The notes under the pieces: generated by a model
What the model saw: only the letters and a program-made list of their open reading frames with translations
Databases searched by the model: none
What the model was told of the DNA's origin: nothing
Shown: piece by piece, positions 9,068 to 56,668 of the stretch
Position numbering within the stretch: the first letter of the stretch is position 1
How the letters are laid out: every line of letters starts with the position of its first letter
NCBI GenBank assembly: GCA_963739305.1
Contig: CAVTZU010000011.1
Coordinates: forward strand, 64,001-128,000
Direction: 5' to 3'
Length of the DNA stretch: 64,000 nucleotides
DNA from: Candidatus Bathyarchaeota archaeon
GTDB taxonomy: Archaea > Thermoproteota > Bathyarchaeia > Bathyarchaeales > Bathycorpusculaceae
Made by a program: the position numbers and the translations under genes

Positions 9068-9652
9068 CTAAAAGTCCCGCGGTTTTGCGATTACTTCCCT
9101 GATTTTCAATTCGAAGAATTTGGCGGAATTGGCAGGACGTATCAGCAAAGCTGTGTCTGCGCCTCGGCCAGTTCCAGCAATAGCTATGACGTCTCTGTCA
9201 ACCGGAATCATGCCCGCATCAGCGGCCATCAGAGTTATCTCGACGCAGACTTTCGTGCCTTCCCCCATGCGTCTGAGTACGTTTGCGATTAACTCTAATG
9301 ATTGTATCGTGCCGAAGTTCTCGCGAACTGCCCTTTCTGCGCTGCTGAGGGCGTGAGTTCCAACAAAGATCTTGGCGGCGCTCGCAGTCATGACATTCTC
9401 GTACCGCTCTTCCATCTCGTTCTTTCCAGGTTCTTTGAAGCCAAAGGCATGAGCAACGACCACAACGTTGAAACCTTTGAACATTTGAGTTGTTTCAGCC
9501 CCAGTCTGACCGGTGGTCGATGCGACCACGATGTCCCTAATGCCTTCTCTTTCAGCATACTCTTTTACGGTTTTCAGCAGACCCGCAGTGTTTGAGTTGC
9601 CTGCCTCTTCGAAATATGTGACCTTCCTCTCAACGGAATTCATGGTACTCAC
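9068..9652 (-). CDS. Pyruvate kinase C-terminal-like domain protein (MTH1675-like)
   Basis: YFEEAG..NT, IVVASTTGQTG, GTKVCVEITLMAADAG, AGTGRGADTA. Confidence 0.85.
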   Translation of the reverse strand: MSTMNSVERKVTYFEEAGNSNTAGLLKTVKEYAEREGIRDIVVASTTGQTGAETTQMFKGFNVVVVAHAFGFKEPGKNEMEERYENVMTASAAKIFVGTHALSSAERAVRENFGTIQSLELIANVLRRMGEGTKVCVEITLMAADAGMIPVDRDVIAIAGTGRGADTALLIRPANSAKFFELKIREVIAKPRDF

Positions 9653-9695
9653 ATCGGTTAGCTGCTACAACCCTGCGTTTTTTATAGTTTTTGAA

Positions 9696-10250
9696 CTACC
9701 GAGGCTGTCCTTCAGATTCTCTTCTCAGCGGTTTACGCTTCAGATCCGTTCCGCAAACCTCGCACTGGGAAGATTTGTAGTCTGTGGGATACGTCTTGCG
9801 GCATGCAGGGCAGTAGCGCAGCCATTCCAAACGACGACGAATGCCAAACGTGGTCAGCGGAGCAAACTCGATCTCCAGTTGCTTCGCGACGTTCTGTATA
9901 GAATAATCATCCGTTGCGATCAGCGGACAGTAGCCTCGGTTTTTGAGTTCAATCGCAAGCGCTAGGAGTTGAAGGTCGGTTTCAGAAAGAAAGTAAGTGT
10001 CACCCACCGTCGAAGCAGATTTCCTGGCTTCTTCCAGGCTCTGGGCGTTTGGGGTTTCAACTCTTATTTTACCGTTCTCTTCTGCCGTCTTGAACCTGAA
10101 GTTCAGAACAGAATCTTCCGGAATCTCGCTTCTGACCGAAGGAACGGTGTATTGTTCTTCACTTATAGAGAAAGGGTCGAGCCCGGCTACAAAAGCCGAT
10201 GTATCCAGAACTACAACTCTCTTGCCGGCTGGGTGGCCTAAAGTCTTCAC
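9696..10250 (-). CDS. nob1: Nob1 rRNA-processing endonuclease (PIN + Zn ribbon)
   Basis: VLDTSAF, LSETD, TDDYSIQN, CPAC...CEVCG; GTG at 10250 overlaps the nadK stop. Confidence 0.9.
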   Translation of the reverse strand: MKTLGHPAGKRVVVLDTSAFVAGLDPFSISEEQYTVPSVRSEIPEDSVLNFRFKTAEENGKIRVETPNAQSLEEARKSASTVGDTYFLSETDLQLLALAIELKNRGYCPLIATDDYSIQNVAKQLEIEFAPLTTFGIRRRLEWLRYCPACRKTYPTDYKSSQCEVCGTDLKRKPLRRESEGQPR

Positions 10251-11116
10251 CTCATTCCCTTGAAGACGAGTCTGGTTCTCAAACGTGGATAAAAGTTCTC
10301 CGTGAACCTTATGAATGAAGTGGCGTTCTTCGACCTTGTGATCGTAAGGGACGGAAGCCTGGAAGTTACTCGCTTCTTGTAATGTCCGTCGATCAGCACC
10401 TGCGTGCTCCTCGGCTTGTTGACTTCGATCCTGAGTGTCGTGTCTGCAGGGAAAACTATCGGGCGGAAAATGCTTAAGGGGCACACTGGGGTGAGAACGA
10501 ACGCGTCGATGCACGGATCCAATACAGGTCCTCCCGCAGAGAGCGAGTAACCCGTGGATCCTGTCTGCGTTGCTACCATCAAGCCATCAGATTGGCACAC
10601 GACGATTGGTTCATCGTTCCTGAAAATCTTCGTGTAGAGTAGTTTGCCTGGTTCATCAGGAGAAACCACAACTTCATTCAAAGCGTCAGGAAACTGCGAG
10701 CTGTCAGCATTGATGGCAAGCTTCATACATTCTTCAATCCTAAACTTGCCTGCAAGTATTCTGTCGACCTTTGCCAAGGCATCTTCCGGTTCGACTTCAG
10801 TCAGAAAACCCCTGACTCCCATGTTCACACCGAGCAACGGTGGCTCGGGTTTGGGCAAAGAAATGCATGTCCTGAGTATTGTTCCGTCTCCGCCTATCGT
10901 TATGACAAAATCAGCCTTCATGCGGTCAAGTGGAACGAATGTTACATCGCCACTGACTTTCTTGGACAAAGTGTCTTCGACATAGACTTCCAGTCCCCGT
11001 GCTCTGAGGTGTTTGGCAAGATCTTCGGCGAGCGTGATCGCACGTTTCCTGTCGTAGCGAGCGACCAAGCCGACATTCTTGAACACGGTTTTCACCCTTG
11101 AGCCTAGTTCCGACAC
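10247..11116 (-). CDS. nadK: NAD kinase
   Basis: GGDGTIL, LNEV, DGLMVATQTGSTGYSLSAGGP. Confidence 0.95.
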   Translation of the reverse strand: MSELGSRVKTVFKNVGLVARYDRKRAITLAEDLAKHLRARGLEVYVEDTLSKKVSGDVTFVPLDRMKADFVITIGGDGTILRTCISLPKPEPPLLGVNMGVRGFLTEVEPEDALAKVDRILAGKFRIEECMKLAINADSSQFPDALNEVVVSPDEPGKLLYTKIFRNDEPIVVCQSDGLMVATQTGSTGYSLSAGGPVLDPCIDAFVLTPVCPLSIFRPIVFPADTTLRIEVNKPRSTQVLIDGHYKKRVTSRLPSLTITRSKNATSFIRFTENFYPRLRTRLVFKGMR

Positions 11117-11119
11117 TCT

Positions 11120-11147
11120 AATCTATATATGGGTGCTGTTTAAAATT
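11120..11147 (+). repeat. Direct repeat copy 1 (AATCTATATATGGGTGCTGTTTAAAATT)
   Basis: 27/28 identical to 15707-15734. Confidence 0.9.
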
Positions 11148-11172
11148 TGCGCGCGGTAAGAAACTGGGAGCC

Positions 11173-11298
11173 TTGCTTGAAAGGAAGAAAGGAGAGAAGG
11201 AAGACGTATTCTACTTAGATGAATTGCTCGATTTGATTCGTGAAGCATCTTTAGAAGACGAAACTGAAGCAAAGATGAGAAGGGTCACAGAGTCGTAG
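11173..11298 (+). CDS. Putative 41-aa charged microprotein
   Basis: TTG start after GGGAG; (M)LERKKGEKEDVFYLDELLDLIREASLEDETEAKMRRVTES. Confidence 0.4.
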   Translation: MLERKKGEKEDVFYLDELLDLIREASLEDETEAKMRRVTES

Positions 11299-11440
11299 CG
11301 CGCGCCACTTCATACACCAACCGACTTATTAACGCAGCAAGTGGTTCTTTACGCAGGGGTTAATCGTCTCACCTGTTTCCACCACGCCTAGTTAAGAAAA
11401 ACTGATATACCCACAGAACCAAGTCAGGATGAGCGATAAC

Positions 11441-12235
11441 ATGAGAAACTTGAATGGGAACAATCTGAGAATTGGTTTGCTGGCAATTCTTGTGTTAGCA
11501 GTATTTGCTCCCACAATGGTTCATGCCAAAGATTACACAGTTGGAGTCAAAGCTGGAGACTGGGTCAAGTATGGCCAAATCACGGTCAGCTGGACTGGAA
11601 ACGGAACCGAGCCTTCATACGTCGCAGAGACAAGGAAGATTGACTGGACGAGAATAGACGTCCTAAGCGTTGCGGGTACAACAGCCAGCTTGAACCAAAC
11701 TGTTCACTTCAACAACGGTACGCAAACGTCCCAAAGCTTGGACACAGACGTCCAAAGCAGTAACTCACCCGGAGCGTCATACCTCATCGCGTCCAACTTG
11801 ACAGCTGGAGACCCGATCAGGCCACAAACACCCGGAACCACCATAAATCAAACTGTGACCGGGCTGTACGCAGGAGGAAACAGAAACGTCAACATAATAG
11901 ACTTCAAAGGTAACCTGCCAGGAATGGGGGCGAACAACACGTTCGAATACAAGACATACTGGGACCAAAGCACCGGCGTCATGGTTGAACTATACATAAA
12001 CGCGACAGACATTACCAATTCTGGCGGGTACGAAGAAATCTCGTTCAAGGCAATTGAGACAAACCTGTGGTCAGCAAATACTCTTGACATTATACAGAAC
12101 AATTTAATCTATATCATTGCTGGAATAGCCGTCATAATAGTCATCGCGGCGGCAACTATCGTCCTCCGAAGAAGAAAACCCTCAACTTCCCAACAAGCTC
12201 CACCTCCTCCGACGCTTCCACCCCCGCCGCCATAA
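11441..12235 (+). CDS. Secreted, C-terminally anchored surface protein with Pro-rich tail (paralog A)
   Basis: Signal peptide (VHA-KD), GVKAGDWVKY, YWDQ.TGVMVE, TM helix, RRRK, poly-Pro tail; ATG at 11441 aligns with the paralog start at 56522. Confidence 0.85.
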   Translation: MRNLNGNNLRIGLLAILVLAVFAPTMVHAKDYTVGVKAGDWVKYGQITVSWTGNGTEPSYVAETRKIDWTRIDVLSVAGTTASLNQTVHFNNGTQTSQSLDTDVQSSNSPGASYLIASNLTAGDPIRPQTPGTTINQTVTGLYAGGNRNVNIIDFKGNLPGMGANNTFEYKTYWDQSTGVMVELYINATDITNSGGYEEISFKAIETNLWSANTLDIIQNNLIYIIAGIAVIIVIAAATIVLRRRKPSTSQQAPPPPTLPPPPP

Positions 12236-12548
12236 GACAGCAAAGCGCGCGTCTGATGACTTTGGGCGATGCTTCCGTATACAACTAACTCCAAGTATCA
12301 CAAGAAATACCACCGCCGAGCTGAATTGCCGCTCTCTTTCGTCAACTGATTCTAGTTTTCAGAGATAACTCGCTTTTCAGTGCGCGATTCAACCGCGCGC
12401 GTATGCTCAACGCGGTAATCCCCAGATGCACTTGTTACGTTATCAAGATCAAAAGAGCTTCAGAGCCCACTGTTCGTTTTTTGGTACAATGATGTTCTAA
12501 GGCTTAGCATTAAGCACTTCAGTGTTCTCATTGTTTTAGGGTGAAAAA

Positions 12549-13262
12549 ATGAAGAGACGAATGAAACTGGAACTAGTTTTGGCCATATTGATGACTCTTG
12601 CAATTGCGTCCCTGGCGATCTATGCGAGCCTGCCGAAAAATCCAGATAGAACCGTGCTGTACATTCAGTCAATTCGCAGCTATGGTTCGTCATCTTTTCA
12701 AGGCACGTCCACTCAACAAGTCATCACCGAGAACATTCAAGGTGAATTGAGAAAAGGGGAATTTGAGACCACAGTTGAAGGATTAAAGAATCTTACCTTG
12801 GTTTATGGTGGAAGAATCCCTAGTCTGCATATGGCCTATGACAATGAGTTATGGAGCGGAACACTGGAATGCAAATTGCCTACAGACAATGTTACATGGT
12901 TCACTTTTGAAGTCAGAAGACTCATCAACGCCCACGGAAAAGTCACGCACATCCTAATAGACGTGAATGAAGTTGAAGTGAACCAGACCCAGACGCCAGA
13001 AATACCACTCTCGGATATCAGCATCTACCTTCAAGAATACGTGGAAGGCTCATCACCTTTCATGAACCAACTTGGCGCAGTCGTTCCTCTGTTGACCACA
13101 GGTCTGCTTTGGATTGCCGAAGGACTCATCATCGCAGTGCCGCTATGCTTCGCGTGCCTCGGAGTCGTCCTAATTGTGAGCCGTGGAATACTTCCGGTCT
13201 GGAAGAGACAGTTCAGAAACAAAATCCCGGCAAAAGAAGTAGCACAAAAGGTCAGCAAGTAG
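12549..13262 (+). CDS. Membrane protein, DUF4349-like
   Basis: N-terminal TM helix, ferredoxin-like core (YGG.I...SGTLECKLP...GKV), ISIYLQE, then C-terminal TM region. Confidence 0.5.
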   Translation: MKRRMKLELVLAILMTLAIASLAIYASLPKNPDRTVLYIQSIRSYGSSSFQGTSTQQVITENIQGELRKGEFETTVEGLKNLTLVYGGRIPSLHMAYDNELWSGTLECKLPTDNVTWFTFEVRRLINAHGKVTHILIDVNEVEVNQTQTPEIPLSDISIYLQEYVEGSSPFMNQLGAVVPLLTTGLLWIAEGLIIAVPLCFACLGVVLIVSRGILPVWKRQFRNKIPAKEVAQKVSK

Positions 13263-13319
13263 CGCGCGCGCTCTATTCTATATTGGAACTTCCAGCTTTA
13301 TTTAAGGTCTGGATACACT

Positions 13320-13619
13320 ATGGTTGAGAAGAGGTTCAAATTATCTGCACGCATAAGTAGTGATAATTCATCAGCGATCAAGCCGGTGCTTGAACGAATC
13401 ATAGACAATGAAGGAACCATCAAGCCCACGGGCGAAGGATTTGAAGTCAACGCAGAGCTCAATGGAGAAAGCGCCAGGGACCTAAACCGCATGCTACTCT
13501 CAGAGATGCGTAAGGCCGAGAAGAAGACCAGAATCCGCGCAGAATGGACCTCGGGCAACACGATCGAAAGGTTCTTCGATTACGTGCCAAAGGCTAGCGC
13601 GCGCTGCGCAAAAACTTAA
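13320..13619 (+). CDS. Hypothetical protein
   Basis: 99-aa ORF with globular composition; TTTATTTAA box upstream. Confidence 0.65.
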   Translation: MVEKRFKLSARISSDNSSAIKPVLERIIDNEGTIKPTGEGFEVNAELNGESARDLNRMLLSEMRKAEKKTRIRAEWTSGNTIERFFDYVPKASARCAKT

Positions 13620-13654
13620 TTCCCTATTCTGACTATCTGAGTGTGGTGATTGCG

Positions 13655-13747
13655 TTGAGCACTGGAAGCACTAAGAAGAAACCAATGACTAAAAAGGAAA
13701 GAGAAGAGAAAAGAAGAAAGCACAAAGAGAAACGCTTGAAGAAGTAG
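13655..13747 (+). CDS. Putative 30-aa highly basic microprotein
   Basis: GGTGA Shine-Dalgarno 5 nt before TTG; (M)STGSTKKKPMTKKEREEKRRKHKEKRLKK. Confidence 0.45.
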   Translation: MSTGSTKKKPMTKKEREEKRRKHKEKRLKK

Positions 13748-13949
13748 GCTCAATCGTTGGGCATTGTTCATTCTTAGCAACCTTTTTGATCTCACGAATC
13801 CGCCTTTTTGCAAACTTTATAGTTCTTTGGGGCCTTTCTGCCGAAGAAATCACGAGTTGCTCTTCTAATAGACGAAAGGAATTAATCGCTTGGTTTTCTT
13901 CACGCAGTCGCGCTATTCTCGTGCGTGCGAAGACAATAGGGCGAGGTTT

Positions 13950-14507
13950 CTATTCGTAGAATATGAGGTTTTGTTCCTCCAATCTTTCGTGAAGCTTATG
14001 CACTGCGTCATAAACGTCCTGTTCTCTCTTCGCTCCAGTGCAAACAAGGTTCCCGCTTGCGAATATCAATATGACCACCTTAGGCTCGTCCATCCTGTAG
14101 ATCAATCCTGGAAACTGCTCCGGCTCATACATGGTTTTTCCAAGCGTGCTCGCCTCTTCCAACTCTATCCTTCCGCCCAAACTTGCTGAGGAAACTATGT
14201 TCTGAATCTTTGACTCGGGCTTGCTGATGATGATTATTCCGCCTTTTTTCAACTCTTTGACAACTGTCATAATAGCCCTGCGCGCCAATTTTTCCGATTT
14301 CGCTCCTGTGCAAACCATTTTTCCAGAGTTGAAAATCAGTGTAGCCGTCTTCGGTTTCTTAAGCCTAAACACAAGTCCCGGGAACTGTTCGGGACGATAT
14401 TCTGCGCTTGGATAACTCTTCACAATAGCGTTTAAGTCAATTTTCTGGTTTAGAGTGGCAGTGGCAACAACGTTCTGAATGATTACTATAGCTTTGGTCT
14501 TCGGCAT
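13950..14507 (-). CDS. tbp: TATA-box binding protein
   Basis: Two repeats of IQNxV...Y.PEQFPGL...LIF.SG..VCTGAK. Confidence 0.97.
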   Translation of the reverse strand: MPKTKAIVIIQNVVATATLNQKIDLNAIVKSYPSAEYRPEQFPGLVFRLKKPKTATLIFNSGKMVCTGAKSEKLARRAIMTVVKELKKGGIIIISKPESKIQNIVSSASLGGRIELEEASTLGKTMYEPEQFPGLIYRMDEPKVVILIFASGNLVCTGAKREQDVYDAVHKLHERLEEQNLIFYE

Positions 14508-14520
14508 TAGAAACCACTTC

Positions 14521-15198
14521 TTATGGTGCGCGCGTGCATTCGATGACGCTTAAGCTTCCGCTTCTCCCCAGTCGCAACTGCCTTTCACCTCTGAACCAGG
14601 TTACTTTGCCGTTCTTGACGTCAATTGCGTCGCCCTTGTGTACCATGCTGATCTGGTGGTTCCATAAACTCATTTTCATTGAACCTGTTTCGTCTTTGAT
14701 AAGTGCGTTTGATATACACGCAGTCGTTCCATATCTCGTGTAGACCATTTTAGATTCTGGAATCTCGAGCACCTCTGCTTTGAGGCTGACCTTTTTCATT
14801 CCAACTTTCAAGTTCCCAATCTTGGATGTTACACCCTCGAAATTCTTGACTGAGGAAGTTCTGGCCAAAATTGTTTCCGTGTAGCCTTCGAGCTGATTCT
14901 TTCCTCGCAAGATGGCAATCGATATAGGAAATTGAGCTACAACCTTTCGCGCGCGCTTTCGACCCTTGGTAAAGAGAAAAATCGCTGAATTTTTCGTCCT
15001 CTTACGACACTTTATAGCCAACGGCTTACATTCTGACCTGCCGTGATTCCAGGCTTCCACAATGCGATTGAAGAATTCACTAGCATCAACCTTATGCAAA
15101 ATCGCTATTTTAGCAAGGTTCTCCAGAATCCTTCTATCTTTGTATGAAAACATGCTGTCAAGAGGCCTGCCTCTACCTCTCCAAATTTGCTTAGCCAT
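14521..15198 (-). CDS. Unknown N-terminal domain fused to a crenarchaeal SSB-like OB fold
   Basis: C-terminal KIGNLKVGMKKV...IKDETGSMKMSLW...GDAIDVKNG.VTWFRGERQL resembles Sulfolobus-type SSB. Confidence 0.75.
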   Translation of the reverse strand: MAKQIWRGRGRPLDSMFSYKDRRILENLAKIAILHKVDASEFFNRIVEAWNHGRSECKPLAIKCRKRTKNSAIFLFTKGRKRARKVVAQFPISIAILRGKNQLEGYTETILARTSSVKNFEGVTSKIGNLKVGMKKVSLKAEVLEIPESKMVYTRYGTTACISNALIKDETGSMKMSLWNHQISMVHKGDAIDVKNGKVTWFRGERQLRLGRSGSLSVIECTRAP

Positions 15199-15706
15199 CT
15201 AACTTGTTTCCACTCTGTTGTTTTTGACTCGACAAATCCATCGCCAAAATAATAGATCTGACGCGCACATCTCAATATTCAACATCACATATATAGCTTG
15301 GGTGCTAGGCGCGAGGCATAAGTCAAGTCTTGTACTCGGACGCGCTACACACGCAGGTCTAGCGTTCTACTACAACTTAATTTTTCGCAATTTGCCAAGA
15401 CGGGCCTTAAGCCAGACCCGATCACTATCTCGGCCAATAACACTACGACCATGGCACGAATTGACAGAATAATCAAGTGAAGGTCGGTTTGGGGGAGTAG
15501 CATCGCTCCCGACTCCCCCTTCGCTCCGTGTAGTCGCTCCCCTATTGTCTCTAGGGAAAAGGTATGATGTTTTGTTTCGATCATGAAGTCGTTTGGCTCT
15601 CGCCAAACTCCCATCGATGCGAGTGACGCCGTTTGCTGACGGAAAACCTCGTGCGCTCAGAAGCCTTGGACGTCGACAATGTAAAGGTGCCGAAAAGTAA
15701 GTGCTA

Positions 15707-15734
15707 AATCTATATATGGGTGTTGTTTAAAATT
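15707..15734 (+). repeat. Direct repeat copy 2; overlaps the probable eIF5A promoter
   Basis: AATCTATATATGGGTGTTGTTTAAAATT, one mismatch against 11120-11147; contains TTTAAA. Confidence 0.9.
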
Positions 15735-15769
15735 GCTGTGGGTAGAGGTTATTTTAGGTTGGTGCAGGA

Positions 15770-16162
15770 ATGAGCAAACCTGTTGATGTGGGGAGCCTCA
15801 GAGTGGGAGGCTACATGATTATTGACGGTGAACCGTGTCACATAGTCGACATAACGAAGTCAAAACCTGGCAAACATGGTTCTGCCAAGTTTAGAATAGT
15901 GGCCATCGGCGTGTTTGACGGTCAAAAACGACAGTTTGTCAAGCCTGTGGATTTGGGCGCGGAGGTCCCGATTATTGACAAACGGATGGGTCAAGTGTAT
16001 GCTGTCACTCCAAGCGGTGTTCAGATAATGGATTTAGAGACGTATGAGTATTTTGACGCTCCATATCCACAAGAGGAAGAGCTTAAAGGTAAGCTTACCC
16101 AGGGCGCAGAAATCGAGTACTGGAAGATTCTGGGCAGAACGAAGATAATGCGCATAAAGTAG
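15770..16162 (+). CDS. eif5a: Translation factor aIF5A/eIF5A
   Basis: Hypusine motif SKPGKHGSAK. Confidence 0.97.
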   Translation: MSKPVDVGSLRVGGYMIIDGEPCHIVDITKSKPGKHGSAKFRIVAIGVFDGQKRQFVKPVDLGAEVPIIDKRMGQVYAVTPSGVQIMDLETYEYFDAPYPQEEELKGKLTQGAEIEYWKILGRTKIMRIK

Positions 16163-16503: not shown

Positions 16504-16560
16504 AGCCGATGATGAAAAGAAGAGCCGTCTGATTCGTGACGACAATCAAGTGCTGAGGCT
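16504..16560 (+). ncRNA. C/D-box methylation guide sRNA
   Basis: AGCC stem, C box ATGATGA (16509-15), 13-nt guide, D' CTGA (16529-32), C' GTGACGA (16536-42), 10-nt guide, D CTGA (16553-56), GGCT stem; intergenic. Confidence 0.88.
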
Positions 16561-36369: not shown

Positions 36370-36848
36370 TGCTGATGGAGCGAGAGAACGAGATTACCAA
36401 GAATCTGCAGCTGATTTTCGGCGAGAAGCTAATCGAAATCAAGAATCCAAGGATGAGAAGGATCTTTGCGCGCGTAGAGGCGGATTCATTCAAGGCAGCG
36501 TTACCTCGCCTAATCAACGACGTGAAGCTGAATCATCTTGTGACGATCACGGGCATAGATCTGGGTCAAGAAATCGAGTTGCTTTATCACTTCACTCACG
36601 ATGGCTCAACAGTGGTTACGGTTGGGTTTAAGATCCCCAAAGATAGTCCGACGGTCAAGACTATTACAGACTTGGTTCCAGGCGCCGTTCTTTATGAGCG
36701 TGAAATTCACGAAATATTGGGCGTAAACTTTGAGGGGCATCCCAACCTTGCGCCTCTGATTCTGCCTGAGGAATGGCCTGAAGGTATTTACCCGCTTAGG
36801 AAAGATCGCAAGTTTGAAGAACTTCGGGAGATAGGTTCCAAAAAGTAA
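36369..36848 (+). CDS. NuoC-like subunit
   Basis: TITGID, YEREIHEILGVNFEGHP, YPLRKD. Confidence 0.92.
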   Translation: MLMERENEITKNLQLIFGEKLIEIKNPRMRRIFARVEADSFKAALPRLINDVKLNHLVTITGIDLGQEIELLYHFTHDGSTVVTVGFKIPKDSPTVKTITDLVPGAVLYEREIHEILGVNFEGHPNLAPLILPEEWPEGIYPLRKDRKFEELREIGSKK

Positions 36849-55652: not shown

Positions 55653-55727
55653 TTCGTGTCCATGAGGAGTAATCGAACTTACCCTTTGGCAGGTAGTCTC
55701 CTCAAGCGTGGGCGACGGTTTGTCGTT

Positions 55728-56522
55728 TTATGATGGCGGTGGTGGAGGCGTGGAAGGAGGTGGAGGTAAAGGTTGTTGAGAAGTTGGGGTTTTTCTTCTT
55801 CGGAGGACGATAGTTGCTGCTACGATGGCTATTATGACGGCTATGCCTGCGATGATGTAGATTAGATCGTTCTGTATGAAGTCGAGGGGATTTGCTGACC
55901 ATAGATTCGTTTCGGTTGCTTTGAACGAGATTTCTTCGTATCCTCCGGATATGCCGACGAAGGTTTGGTTCGTGTAGAGTTCAACCATGACGCCGGTGTT
56001 TTGGTCCCAGTAGGTCCTGTATTCGTACGGGTAGTTTACTTGGGCCACTGTGTTGTTGCCTTTGTAGTCGAGTACGTTGACGTTTCTGTTTGCTCCCGCG
56101 TACATTCCTGTCACGGTTTGGTCTATGACGGCTTGTGTTTGTGGGTTTAGCGGGTCTCCAGCCGTCAGGTTGGAGGCGATGATGTATGAGGTTCCGACGA
56201 GGTTGCTTGTTTGGACGTCGTCTTCGAAGTTTTCGGAGAGTTGTGTGCCGTTGCTGTATTGTATGGTGAAGTTTAGGCTGGCTGCTGTTCCCGTGACGCT
56301 CAGGACGTCCATTCGAACCCAGTCTAGCTTTATCTCTTGAAGGTCTGATGGCTCGGTGCCGTTTCCGCCCCAGTTGACGACGAATTGGCCGTACTTGACC
56401 CAGTCTCCAGCTTTGACTCCGAGCGTGTAATCTTTGGCATGAACCAGTGTGGGAGCAAATACTGCCACCACAAGAATTACCAGCAAGCCAATTCTCAGAT
56501 TGTTCCCAATCAAGCTTCTCAT
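55728..56522 (-). CDS. Secreted, C-terminally anchored surface protein with Pro-rich tail (paralog B)
   Basis: Collinear with 11441-12235, with many identical blocks (GVKAGDWVKYGQ, IASNLTAGDP, GGYEEISFKA). Confidence 0.85.
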   Translation of the reverse strand: MRSLIGNNLRIGLLVILVVAVFAPTLVHAKDYTLGVKAGDWVKYGQFVVNWGGNGTEPSDLQEIKLDWVRMDVLSVTGTAASLNFTIQYSNGTQLSENFEDDVQTSNLVGTSYIIASNLTAGDPLNPQTQAVIDQTVTGMYAGANRNVNVLDYKGNNTVAQVNYPYEYRTYWDQNTGVMVELYTNQTFVGISGGYEEISFKATETNLWSANPLDFIQNDLIYIIAGIAVIIAIVAATIVLRRRKTPTSQQPLPPPPSTPPPPPS

Positions 56523-56668
56523 GTTATCGTCAGTCCTGACTTGGCTCTGTGGGTATATCAGTTTTTCTTAACTAGATGTTGCTAGATCGTTGTATCGTCG
56601 TCGGTCGTGGGCCACATGCTTGCTTGGGATGGTACGCGTCCGCGTGCGCTTCTAAATGTTCCAATTAG

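Follow-up and report, generated by a model that had tools for sequence, protein, structure and literature searches.

The nadK/aIF5A locus and its duplicated promoter core

The window analysed here is a stretch of 64,000 nucleotides from a metagenome-assembled genome (MAG) of a Bathyarchaeota archaeon, and its positions 11148-15706 hold an island that lies between two divergent host genes and is bounded by a 28-bp direct repeat. G000 denotes the genome of the window, other G numbers denote related genomes and C numbers denote contigs. On the left is nadK, encoding NAD kinase (10247..11116, minus strand; Pfam PF01513 and PF20143), and on the right is aIF5A (15770..16162, plus strand; PF21485 and PF01287), which is 90-95% identical within the genus. 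The two copies of the 28-mer, AATCTATATATGGGTGCTGTTTAAAATT at 11120-11147 and AATCTATATATGGGTGTTGTTTAAAATT at 15707-15734, lie on the same strand and agree at 27 of 28 positions, the sole mismatch being C at 11136 in the left copy versus T at 15723 in the right copy (position 17 of the repeat); the positions and identity given by an earlier, sequence-only reading were thereby verified. This pair is the only long direct repeat within 11000-15900, and none of 100 dinucleotide-preserving shuffles of the window contained two or more matches to the 28-mer at up to three mismatches. At the same threshold the whole G000 genome (2,317,032 bases, 36 contigs) contains exactly two copies, so the search for further copies that had been proposed indicates that the 28-mer is not a common promoter motif. 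No terminal inverted repeats pairing the ends of the island were found.

Reading of the repeat suggests that each copy carries promoter elements for both host genes. In the left copy (11120..11147, resembling an attachment (att) site of the attL kind), CTATATAT on the minus strand would be the nadK TATA box and TTTAAAAT a spare aIF5A-type TATA box that now points into the island. In the right copy (15707..15734, attR-like), which has the host-type T at position 17, TTTAAAAT would be the TATA box of aIF5A itself. The real start of nadK is probably a GTG near 11095, judging by its spacing to the TATA box, and the mRNA would then be leaderless or have a short leader; alignments of nadK homologues begin at residue 4-13. 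A GCGCGCG run (11149..11155) lies at the left junction, and the G+C content is 43-47% within the island compared with about 50% to its left.

Relatives of G000 show the site without an insert. Among the first 18 relatives fetched, 15 had nadK and aIF5A head-to-head, 70-100 bp apart, around one CACCTTAATCTATATATGGGTGTTGTTTAAAATTGCTGTGG. The compact arrangement was seen in the same genus, family and order, and eight of the nine congeners with a determinable site have it. At these empty sites the nadK start is found about 22 nt downstream of CTATATAT (minus strand), and the aIF5A ATG about 40 nt downstream of TTTAAAAT. Across 19 empty sites the 28-mer differed from the right copy of the window by a median of three bases, and by none in G004 and G018. 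The sequence-only reading had held that DNA was inserted at the promoter, with a duplication that leaves each host gene its own copy, and had predicted that relatives would have an empty site with one copy between head-to-head genes; the single-copy empty sites bear out both statements and mark the insertion as lineage-specific.

To place these sites in a wider frame, 101 genomes of the family were sampled. Both genes were found in 91 of them and on one contig in 85, and in all 85 the genes are divergent. The gap between nadK and aIF5A is at most 110 bp in 67 genomes (median 84), 111-300 bp in five and 1.1-23 kb in 13, G000 among them. Outside the sample the site is also occupied in G005 (same genus) and G020 (same order). 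A host tree was built with FastTree from three flanking proteins (orf194, nadK and aIF5A; 613 columns), genes that adjoin the site, such that recombination could itself have affected the tree. Here G003 and G004, both empty, form a group with G000 (support 0.996), and G006 and G009, also empty, form one with the occupied G005 (support 1.0). Two further genomes, G012 and G105, have an insert where their congeners G093 and G044 are compact. The occupied genomes are scattered on the host tree, that is, polyphyletic. The nadK/aIF5A promoter is a family-wide hotspot for at least three kinds of insert, one of them with a tyrosine integrase.

Every occupied site opens with a TATA-like stretch on the nadK side. 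The duplicated length is 14-15 bp in G012, G105 and G067, about 22 bp in G020 and 28 bp in G000, and the duplication is hardly detectable in G039, G072 and G076. The cargo at the other occupied sites includes restriction-modification genes, NurA/HerA/Mre11/Rad50-like genes, TIR and DUF1508 genes, PIN toxins, a terminase fragment, an insertion sequence (IS) element, ABC transporters and PEP carboxylase. The largest insert, of 23 kb (L142/L143; G038:C5:62000-86500), carries an Eco57I/MmeI-type restriction-modification gene, two PIN-domain genes, a fragment of a terminase large subunit, Lrp/AsnC regulators and an ABC transporter. In the spacers of G071 (L147) and G117 (L148) the inserts are only about 130-160 bp long and are flanked by a promoter duplication of about 24 bp (CTTTAACGTATATATCTGT.TT); these may be the scars of an excised or deleted island, or small non-coding inserts.

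An integrase-bearing insert and conserved arms

One insert at this site carries an intact integrase. In the 12.8-kb insert of G012, the aIF5A-side end is formed by a 426-residue tyrosine integrase (PF00589, E 7.5e-20) beside the junction; the insert also holds an IS110 transposase and a weak primase-polymerase match (PF21686; 25.5 bits, under the 27.4-bit cut-off). Comparison with the empty site of G093 gives the attB as ...GCGGT[ACCTTAATCTATAT]ATGGG..., and the identical 14 bp are present at both G012 junctions. For G105, comparison with G044 likewise yields a core of 15 bp, ACCTTAATCTATATA, and the insert that it bounds encodes a DNA methylase and a PLD-type nuclease. In G067 the right arm is as in G012: a stretch of 269 nt, 86.6% identical to G012, covers the last 200 nt of the integrase gene together with the arm, and no intact integrase is present. 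Because G067 retains the arm and the 3' end of the integrase gene, the loss of an integrase with its arms kept is documented at the nadK/aIF5A site. Elsewhere in the G000 genome there are about a dozen tyrosine recombinases or integrases. Isolated fragments that match only the last ~80 residues of a tyrosine integrase also occur in G000 (C13:152954-153181, C17:2725-2952, C1:45768-45989 and others) and may mark decayed or split integrated elements at those loci.

By the sequence of its ends, the G000 island represents a second arm type at the site, apart from the G012 type. Its conserved right arm (15588..15706) is about 120 nt long and ends in ...GTGCTA beside the right repeat. The arm contains a hairpin with a 7-bp stem (GTTTGGC-TCTC-GCCAAAC, 15591-15608), the upstream hairpin being common to G005 and G118, and the motif GGTGCCGAAAAGT. 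It is common to G005 (78% over 164 nt), G072, G118 and G254, and G089 has a variant form. When 332 genomes of the family were searched for the exact pattern (GGTRCCGAAAA...TAAAKCTATATATG), it was found in five (G000, G005, G072, G118 and G254), which belong to three genera, and each match lies directly beside the aIF5A promoter.

The left ends of the G000 and G005 inserts are also related. On its left side G005 has a decayed promoter copy followed by homology to window positions 11148-11294 and 12257-12288, the latter a backbone segment (12257..12288) that is 94% identical over 32 nt. The left copy of G005 reads ATCT and CTGT, as does the left copy of G000, so that the C at position 17 and the adjoining sequence are common to both; the right copy of G005 reads AAGCT and TTGT, as in its own relatives G006 and G009. 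The agreement between the left copies of G005 and G000, together with homology that extends into the island, suggests that the nadK-side copy is borne by the element and travels with the inserted DNA, a conclusion drawn from two diagnostic bases and the adjoining homology. The left sequence of G000 diverges from its closest empty relatives directly after ...CAC, which locates the exchange to the interval from the nadK start to the TATA box. At this point an insertion would separate nadK from its promoter unless a new one arrived with the inserted DNA.

A metagenome scan gave as its sole match an independent 2.8-kb contig from a strain that is about 94% identical; this contig matches the window at 93.7% over 9303-12054 and has the same, integrated left junction. 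A scan of viral contigs for the degenerate core gave none. Further population data came from four peat or sediment runs, the short assembled contigs of which cover the island, and in run X2 a 368-nt contig spans the left junction with no differences. No contig joining 11147 to 15735, as an empty site would, was present among the short assembled contigs, a result that is uninformative either way. The summed depth over the part of the island that encodes a TATA-binding protein (TBP) and a single-stranded DNA-binding (SSB) protein is 10-100 times that of the flanks in the four runs, as follows if this cassette is present in many community members. Also in run X2, one contig joins 13596 to 15705, skipping 2108 bp, with a depth of 16, 32 nt on the shorter side and GCTA on both sides. 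This join, from the TAGCGCGCGC site after a 99-aa (amino acid) open reading frame (ORF) to the right promoter copy, would fit, if weakly, an island variant that lacks the micro-gene, TBP, SSB and right arm.

Cassettes and border palindrome of the island

Pfam and homology searches verified the cargo that the sequence-only reading had listed, namely a surface-protein paralogue, hypothetical and micro ORFs and an SSB-fusion and TBP pair, with a weaker case for the family label of one gene; five of the ORFs are clear. All of the following units up to the TBP gene are on the plus strand. At the left end is a 41-codon ORF (11173..11298) that ends in the TAG of the TAGCGCGCGC motif; it is a doubtful gene, and its frame is not conserved in G005. 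The next unit (11296..12251) encodes a secreted or anchored protein of 268 residues (coding sequence 11429-12235) and has TAGCGCGCGCC at its left border and AAAGCGCGCGTC at its right. This protein has a 71%-identical paralogue in the window at about 55716-56575, and blocks of about 80% identity occur in G002, G005 and G008. The cassette is absent from the G005 island, and alignment to the homologous backbone there shows it as a precise indel between TAGCGCGCGCC and AAAGCGCGCGTC. There follows a unit (12394..13271) for a membrane protein of 237 residues (coding sequence 12549-13262), whose TAG stop codon coincides with the opening three bases of TAGCGCGCGCGC; over 12402-13262 the unit has 87% identity to G005:C7. 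The gene had been called DUF4349-like, and here the membrane protein ORF stood but the family label did not find firm support (E 0.045; 13.5 bits, under the cut-off of 27.7).

The unit with the 99-aa ORF (13266..13610; ORF 13320-13619) recurs at 95% identity in G112, which belongs to another genus, and at 92% in G001; homology to G001 and G010 ends exactly at the TAGCGCGCGC of G000. For the 268-, 237- and 99-residue proteins, Pfam at E values up to 10 returned sub-threshold matches only, none of the five island proteins matched PHROGs, and Rfam found nothing in the island at E values up to 1. A multi-copy element of about 170 nt (13601..13778) then carries a 30-codon micro-gene (13655-13747) with a TTG start, encoding a very basic peptide that has no Pfam match. 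In 21 aligned copies the substitution load at the three codon positions is 0.026, 0.046 and 0.161, and the frame is kept in 20 of the 21, which come from many genera. Further copies lie in G000 at C13:75500-75672 and C18:62385-62553, and the element is often found 0.2-4 kb from a TBP gene.

The TBP paralogue (13950..14507, minus strand; PF00352, E 2e-60, two repeats) is one of five TBP loci in G000, which also has one TBP fragment. Its amino acid identity is 88% to the copy on C14, 85% to that on C8, 84% to that on C17 and 62% to that on C15; the best NCBIfam equivalog scored 244 bits against a cut-off of 270, and the protein falls under the cut-off of every named subfamily. Upstream of it in tandem, 13 bp apart on the same strand, is the gene for a 225-residue fusion of an SSB-type OB fold (SSB-OB; 14521..15198, minus strand). 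The C-terminal OB fold (residues ~124-220) is of the crenarchaeal SSB type (PF21473 and NCBIfam SSB models), and residues 125-214 match PDB 1o7i, 2mna and 7wcg at about E 5e-14. The protein thus has the same single OB fold as the Sulfolobus-type SSB family but differs from it by an extra N-terminal domain of about 120 residues, of which residues ~17-115 remained without assignment. A structure model from a 13-sequence alignment had a mean predicted local distance difference test (pLDDT) score of 53 and was confident only at residues ~20-115; in a fold search of this N-terminal domain against representatives the best Z was 4.3, within noise, with PUR/PC4-type ssDNA binders at Z 3.3-4.1.

Together the two genes form a unit of 1.37 kb (13943..15310, minus strand) with its own TATA box, CATATATAG, at about 15288-15296 (plus-strand positions). 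The unit is found with the same limits and 83-89% nucleotide identity in G002, G005, G008, G089, G103 and G039, and G001, G081 and G086 each have two copies at other loci in the same identity range; at least six different flanking contexts were distinguished. None of the 13 other fully fetched occupied sites contained a TBP by tblastn. With no TBP at those sites and the unit present in at least six other contexts, TBP delivery is incidental to the site. Taken together, these alignments describe the island cargo as a mosaic of cassettes, each block of which recurs elsewhere on its own. Another part of the genome, C8:35001-50000 (L164), has a cluster of TBP, TFB (TFIIB), Alba, ribosomal protein L35Ae and SSB-OB fusion paralogues, which in congeners is split into blocks at scattered loci.

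Many of the cassette borders carry a short palindrome. A scan of the window for (T)AGCGCGCGC(TA) placed it at 11149, 11298, 12245, 12394, 13262, 13597, 14528 and 14948 in the island and at 36468 and 57917 elsewhere. AGCGCGCGC occurs seven times in the window against 0.39 expected, six of the seven inside the island, and alternating-GC runs of at least seven are present at eight sites in the 4.56-kb island compared with two in the other 59 kb. Genome-wide, GCGCGCGC has 359 occurrences in G000, an approximately 15-fold excess over the ~23 expected from base composition. No extended repeat surrounds the palindrome, conservation stopping at T-A on either side. The motif TAGCGCGCGC is abundant in all 10 congeners (13-210 copies; 2-23 for a reversed-pattern control), nearly absent (0-3 copies) from 20 genomes of 19 other genera, and abundant again (71-177 copies) in the four other genera that have the TBP and SSB-OB cassette.

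The distribution of the palindrome within G000 is uneven. Predicted coding sequence holds 21% of 327 sites compared with 83.5% of random positions, 24% of sites lie within 30 nt of an ORF 3' end compared with 6.7% of random positions, and 149 of 292 sites fall in 29 of 216 ten-kb bins. Palindrome-dense regions contain numerous small uncharacterised ORFs as well as paralogues of TBP, TFB, Alba, L35Ae, SSB-OB, thermosome, Hsp20 and a proteasome subunit. Of 1205 ends of paralogous blocks in G000, 3.3% lie within 10 nt of a palindrome, compared with 0.46% at random; for intergenic block ends only, the figures are 7.4% and 2.0%. In a comparison of C8:35001-50000 with congeners, six of nine palindrome sites had a block end within 15 nt, and simulation gave P = 0.0026 when sites were placed anywhere and P = 0.024 when they were restricted to intergenic positions. 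The association of the palindrome with cassette borders is real but partial.

A role as a simple promoter element was rejected, the density per kb being 0.90 in convergent, 0.69 in tandem and 0.52 in divergent intergenic regions. The palindrome may instead serve in recombination or targeting, as a signal that marks boundaries or acts like a terminator, or as a tag of the uptake type. We would give a modest chance to a broader scheme of cassette exchange in this peat and soil clade of Bathyarchaeia, whereby genes or gene pairs would move and duplicate as units bounded by TAGCGCGCGC(TA), alongside a promoter-embedded att site with a replacement promoter, and the palindrome would be a new recombination or targeting site and not a regulatory signal. 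The exchanged units may include paralogues of TBP, TFB, Alba, SSB and ribosomal protein L35Ae as well as the 30-aa basic peptide. Literature searches on mobile elements of Bathyarchaeia and on attB sites in archaea returned no description of the hotspot or of the palindrome; a full-text search for GCGCGCGC in archaeal intergenic DNA gave unrelated papers, and supplementary lists of integration sites were outside its scope.

Probable origin of the island and its likely place among integrated elements

We think it rather probable that window 11148-15706 is an integrase-less island, the remnant or satellite of a site-specific integrative element, within a hotspot at the ~85-bp divergent core promoter of nadK and aIF5A. 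According to this model, the element would have entered by site-specific recombination, with the crossover in or beside ...CACCTTAA..., between the nadK start and the TATA box. The att site would be the bidirectional TATA core, and the attachment site of the element would itself have carried a copy of the promoter core, such that after integration nadK would be served by the element-borne left copy and aIF5A would keep the original right copy. The recombinase gene would have been lost since, or always supplied in trans, and the cargo would then have been rebuilt cassette by cassette, with many borders on TAGCGCGCGC. Excision would yield a circle with a junction consisting of the right arm, one core and TGCGCGCGG. 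That a tyrosine recombinase made the G000 insertion we infer only by analogy, from another family of inserts in this promoter, since no integrase was found among the inserts with the G000 arm.

Several observations weigh against this model. Consistent with what the sequence-only reading had stated, the G000 island has no integrase or integrase remnant, Pfam having detected none among its ORFs and tblastn with the G012 integrase having a best E of 0.34. Nor was one seen in the inserts with the G000 right arm, of which those of G089 and G072 are complete and those of G005, G118 and G254 are cut by contig ends, and among the 13 other fully fetched occupied sites only one has an integrase. The duplicated length varies among genomes, a spread that would not be expected of one mechanism of constant stagger. 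Finally, G000 and G005 share both junctions, and one old insertion followed by losses would give the same result.

The range of duplicated lengths, from about 10 to 28 bp, would be accommodated by illegitimate insertion at staggered breaks in an open AT-rich promoter, through end joining or microhomology, with selection keeping those events that leave both genes a TATA box and with no dedicated recombinase. The heterogeneous cargo, the lack of an integrase at 12 of the 13 other complete occupied sites, and the 130-160 bp inserts with ~24-bp duplications in G071 and G117 point the same way. We nevertheless consider this origin unlikely, because a 14-15-bp core bounds inserts in three genera, one of them with an integrase, because arms of ~120 nt are conserved between genera with nadK proteins only 55-65% identical, and because the left copy of G005 has the G000-type variants. 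One or a few old insertions could also have been inherited vertically, with turnover of the cargo in place and frequent loss by recombination between the direct repeats, which would permit a precise deletion restoring the empty site. The junction regions shared by G000 and G005, and the strong decay of the G005 left copy, as for an old event, are consistent with such a history. However, it would require at least three precise losses within the genus and many more to account for one right arm shared by three of the 70 sampled genera, in which most genomes are compact, and the G000 repeats are still identical at 27 of 28 positions; we therefore regard it as distinctly improbable.

The sequence-only reading had raised the idea of a promoter-targeted cassette that has the purpose of delivering its own basal transcription factor, and the island does contain an intact TBP gene with its own TATA box. 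This proposal found no support in the comparison, as TBP and SSB-OB form a separate 1.37-kb cassette that keeps its limits in at least six unrelated contexts and has no counterpart at the 13 other complete sites, and the X2 contig joining 13596 to 15705 would represent a variant without the cassette, weak evidence from one contig with 32 nt on its shorter side; we judge the proposal very unlikely. As to a chimeric join in the assembly, G000 is a MAG with an estimated contamination of 7.82%, and multi-copy cassettes could mislead an assembler. The left junction is present both in the independent metagenome contig and in the 368-nt contig of X2, and four other genomes likewise have the right arm directly beside the aIF5A promoter, such that an artefact is scarcely credible.

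Three further classes of element were considered. An IS element or transposon was rejected, there being no terminal inverted repeats pairing the ends and no transposase domain by Pfam; a target-site duplication of 28 bp is also longer than is usual for these elements. For a casposon, neither a Cas1 integrase nor terminal inverted repeats were found. For an integron, no IntI-type integrase lies in or beside the island, and no search with attC models was made.

We would classify the G000 insert as an island without an integrase, in an attachment hotspot that lies within a promoter, which makes it a variant of an already known type of integrated element. Archaeal elements integrated by tyrosine recombinases between direct att repeats are described as lying mostly in tRNA genes, with a few intergenic attB sites, for example that of prophage PsiM100 (PMC8371274). 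The G000 island resembles them in that its repeats correspond to one copy at the empty site, the site is reused, a relative with an integrase exists (G012) and integrase decay with arms kept is seen (G067). It differs in that attachment is at a bidirectional TATA core shared by two protein-coding genes rather than at a tRNA gene or neutral spacer, that it has no integrase itself, and that at least three kinds of arm occur on overlapping cores. ARAGORN detected no tRNA genes in the window. Integrated elements with tRNA genes as their targets bring along a substitute for the severed gene end and thereby preserve the function of the target (PMC8371274). Here too the incoming DNA appears to restore what integration severs, namely the nadK TATA box, but it would be a promoter and not a gene end that is restored, if the left copy is indeed element-borne.

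The cassettes themselves invite two other comparisons. Integron gene cassettes have been reported also in archaeal MAGs. The G000 cassettes are similar to these in being small, mostly single-gene units that occur in varied contexts and in arrays, with a short border sequence resembling a recombination site; unlike them, they have no IntI-type gene beside the array, their border is a perfect palindrome of 10-12 bp and not an attC hairpin, and they appear to carry their own TATA-like sequences. Haloarchaeal replicons carry extra TBP and TFB genes, and G000, with its five TBP genes, likewise has a paralogue of a basal transcription factor on accessory, mobile DNA. In Bathyarchaeia, by contrast, the TBP gene lies directly downstream of a same-strand SSB-type OB gene within a 1.37-kb cassette. 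For the clade-specific palindrome at the borders of the cassettes, no known system offers an explanation.

Archaeal integration sites are known mostly from tRNA genes, and here the site is a conserved bidirectional TATA core that serves two core genes. Of the 85 genomes sampled in one Bathyarchaeia family, 13 have a large insert there, and the inserted DNA appears to restore the displaced promoter. The locus offers a concrete attB/attP pair and one intact integrase (G012) for an archaeal class without genetic tools, and paralogues of basal transcription factors spread in these genomes as small cassettes.

Two features of the flanking host DNA may be added. On the right, a candidate C/D-box small RNA lies at 16505-16558 (plus strand), between a 76-aa ORF and an Hsp20-like gene, where several Rfam C/D-box models matched at 17-25 bits, all under their gathering scores. 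On the left, a listed PIN-domain ORF (9696-10514, minus strand) shares about 270 nt with the 3' part of nadK (10247-11116, minus strand); homology to the PIN protein in several relatives begins only near residue 87-100, and the real start of the PIN gene is probably downstream of the listed one.

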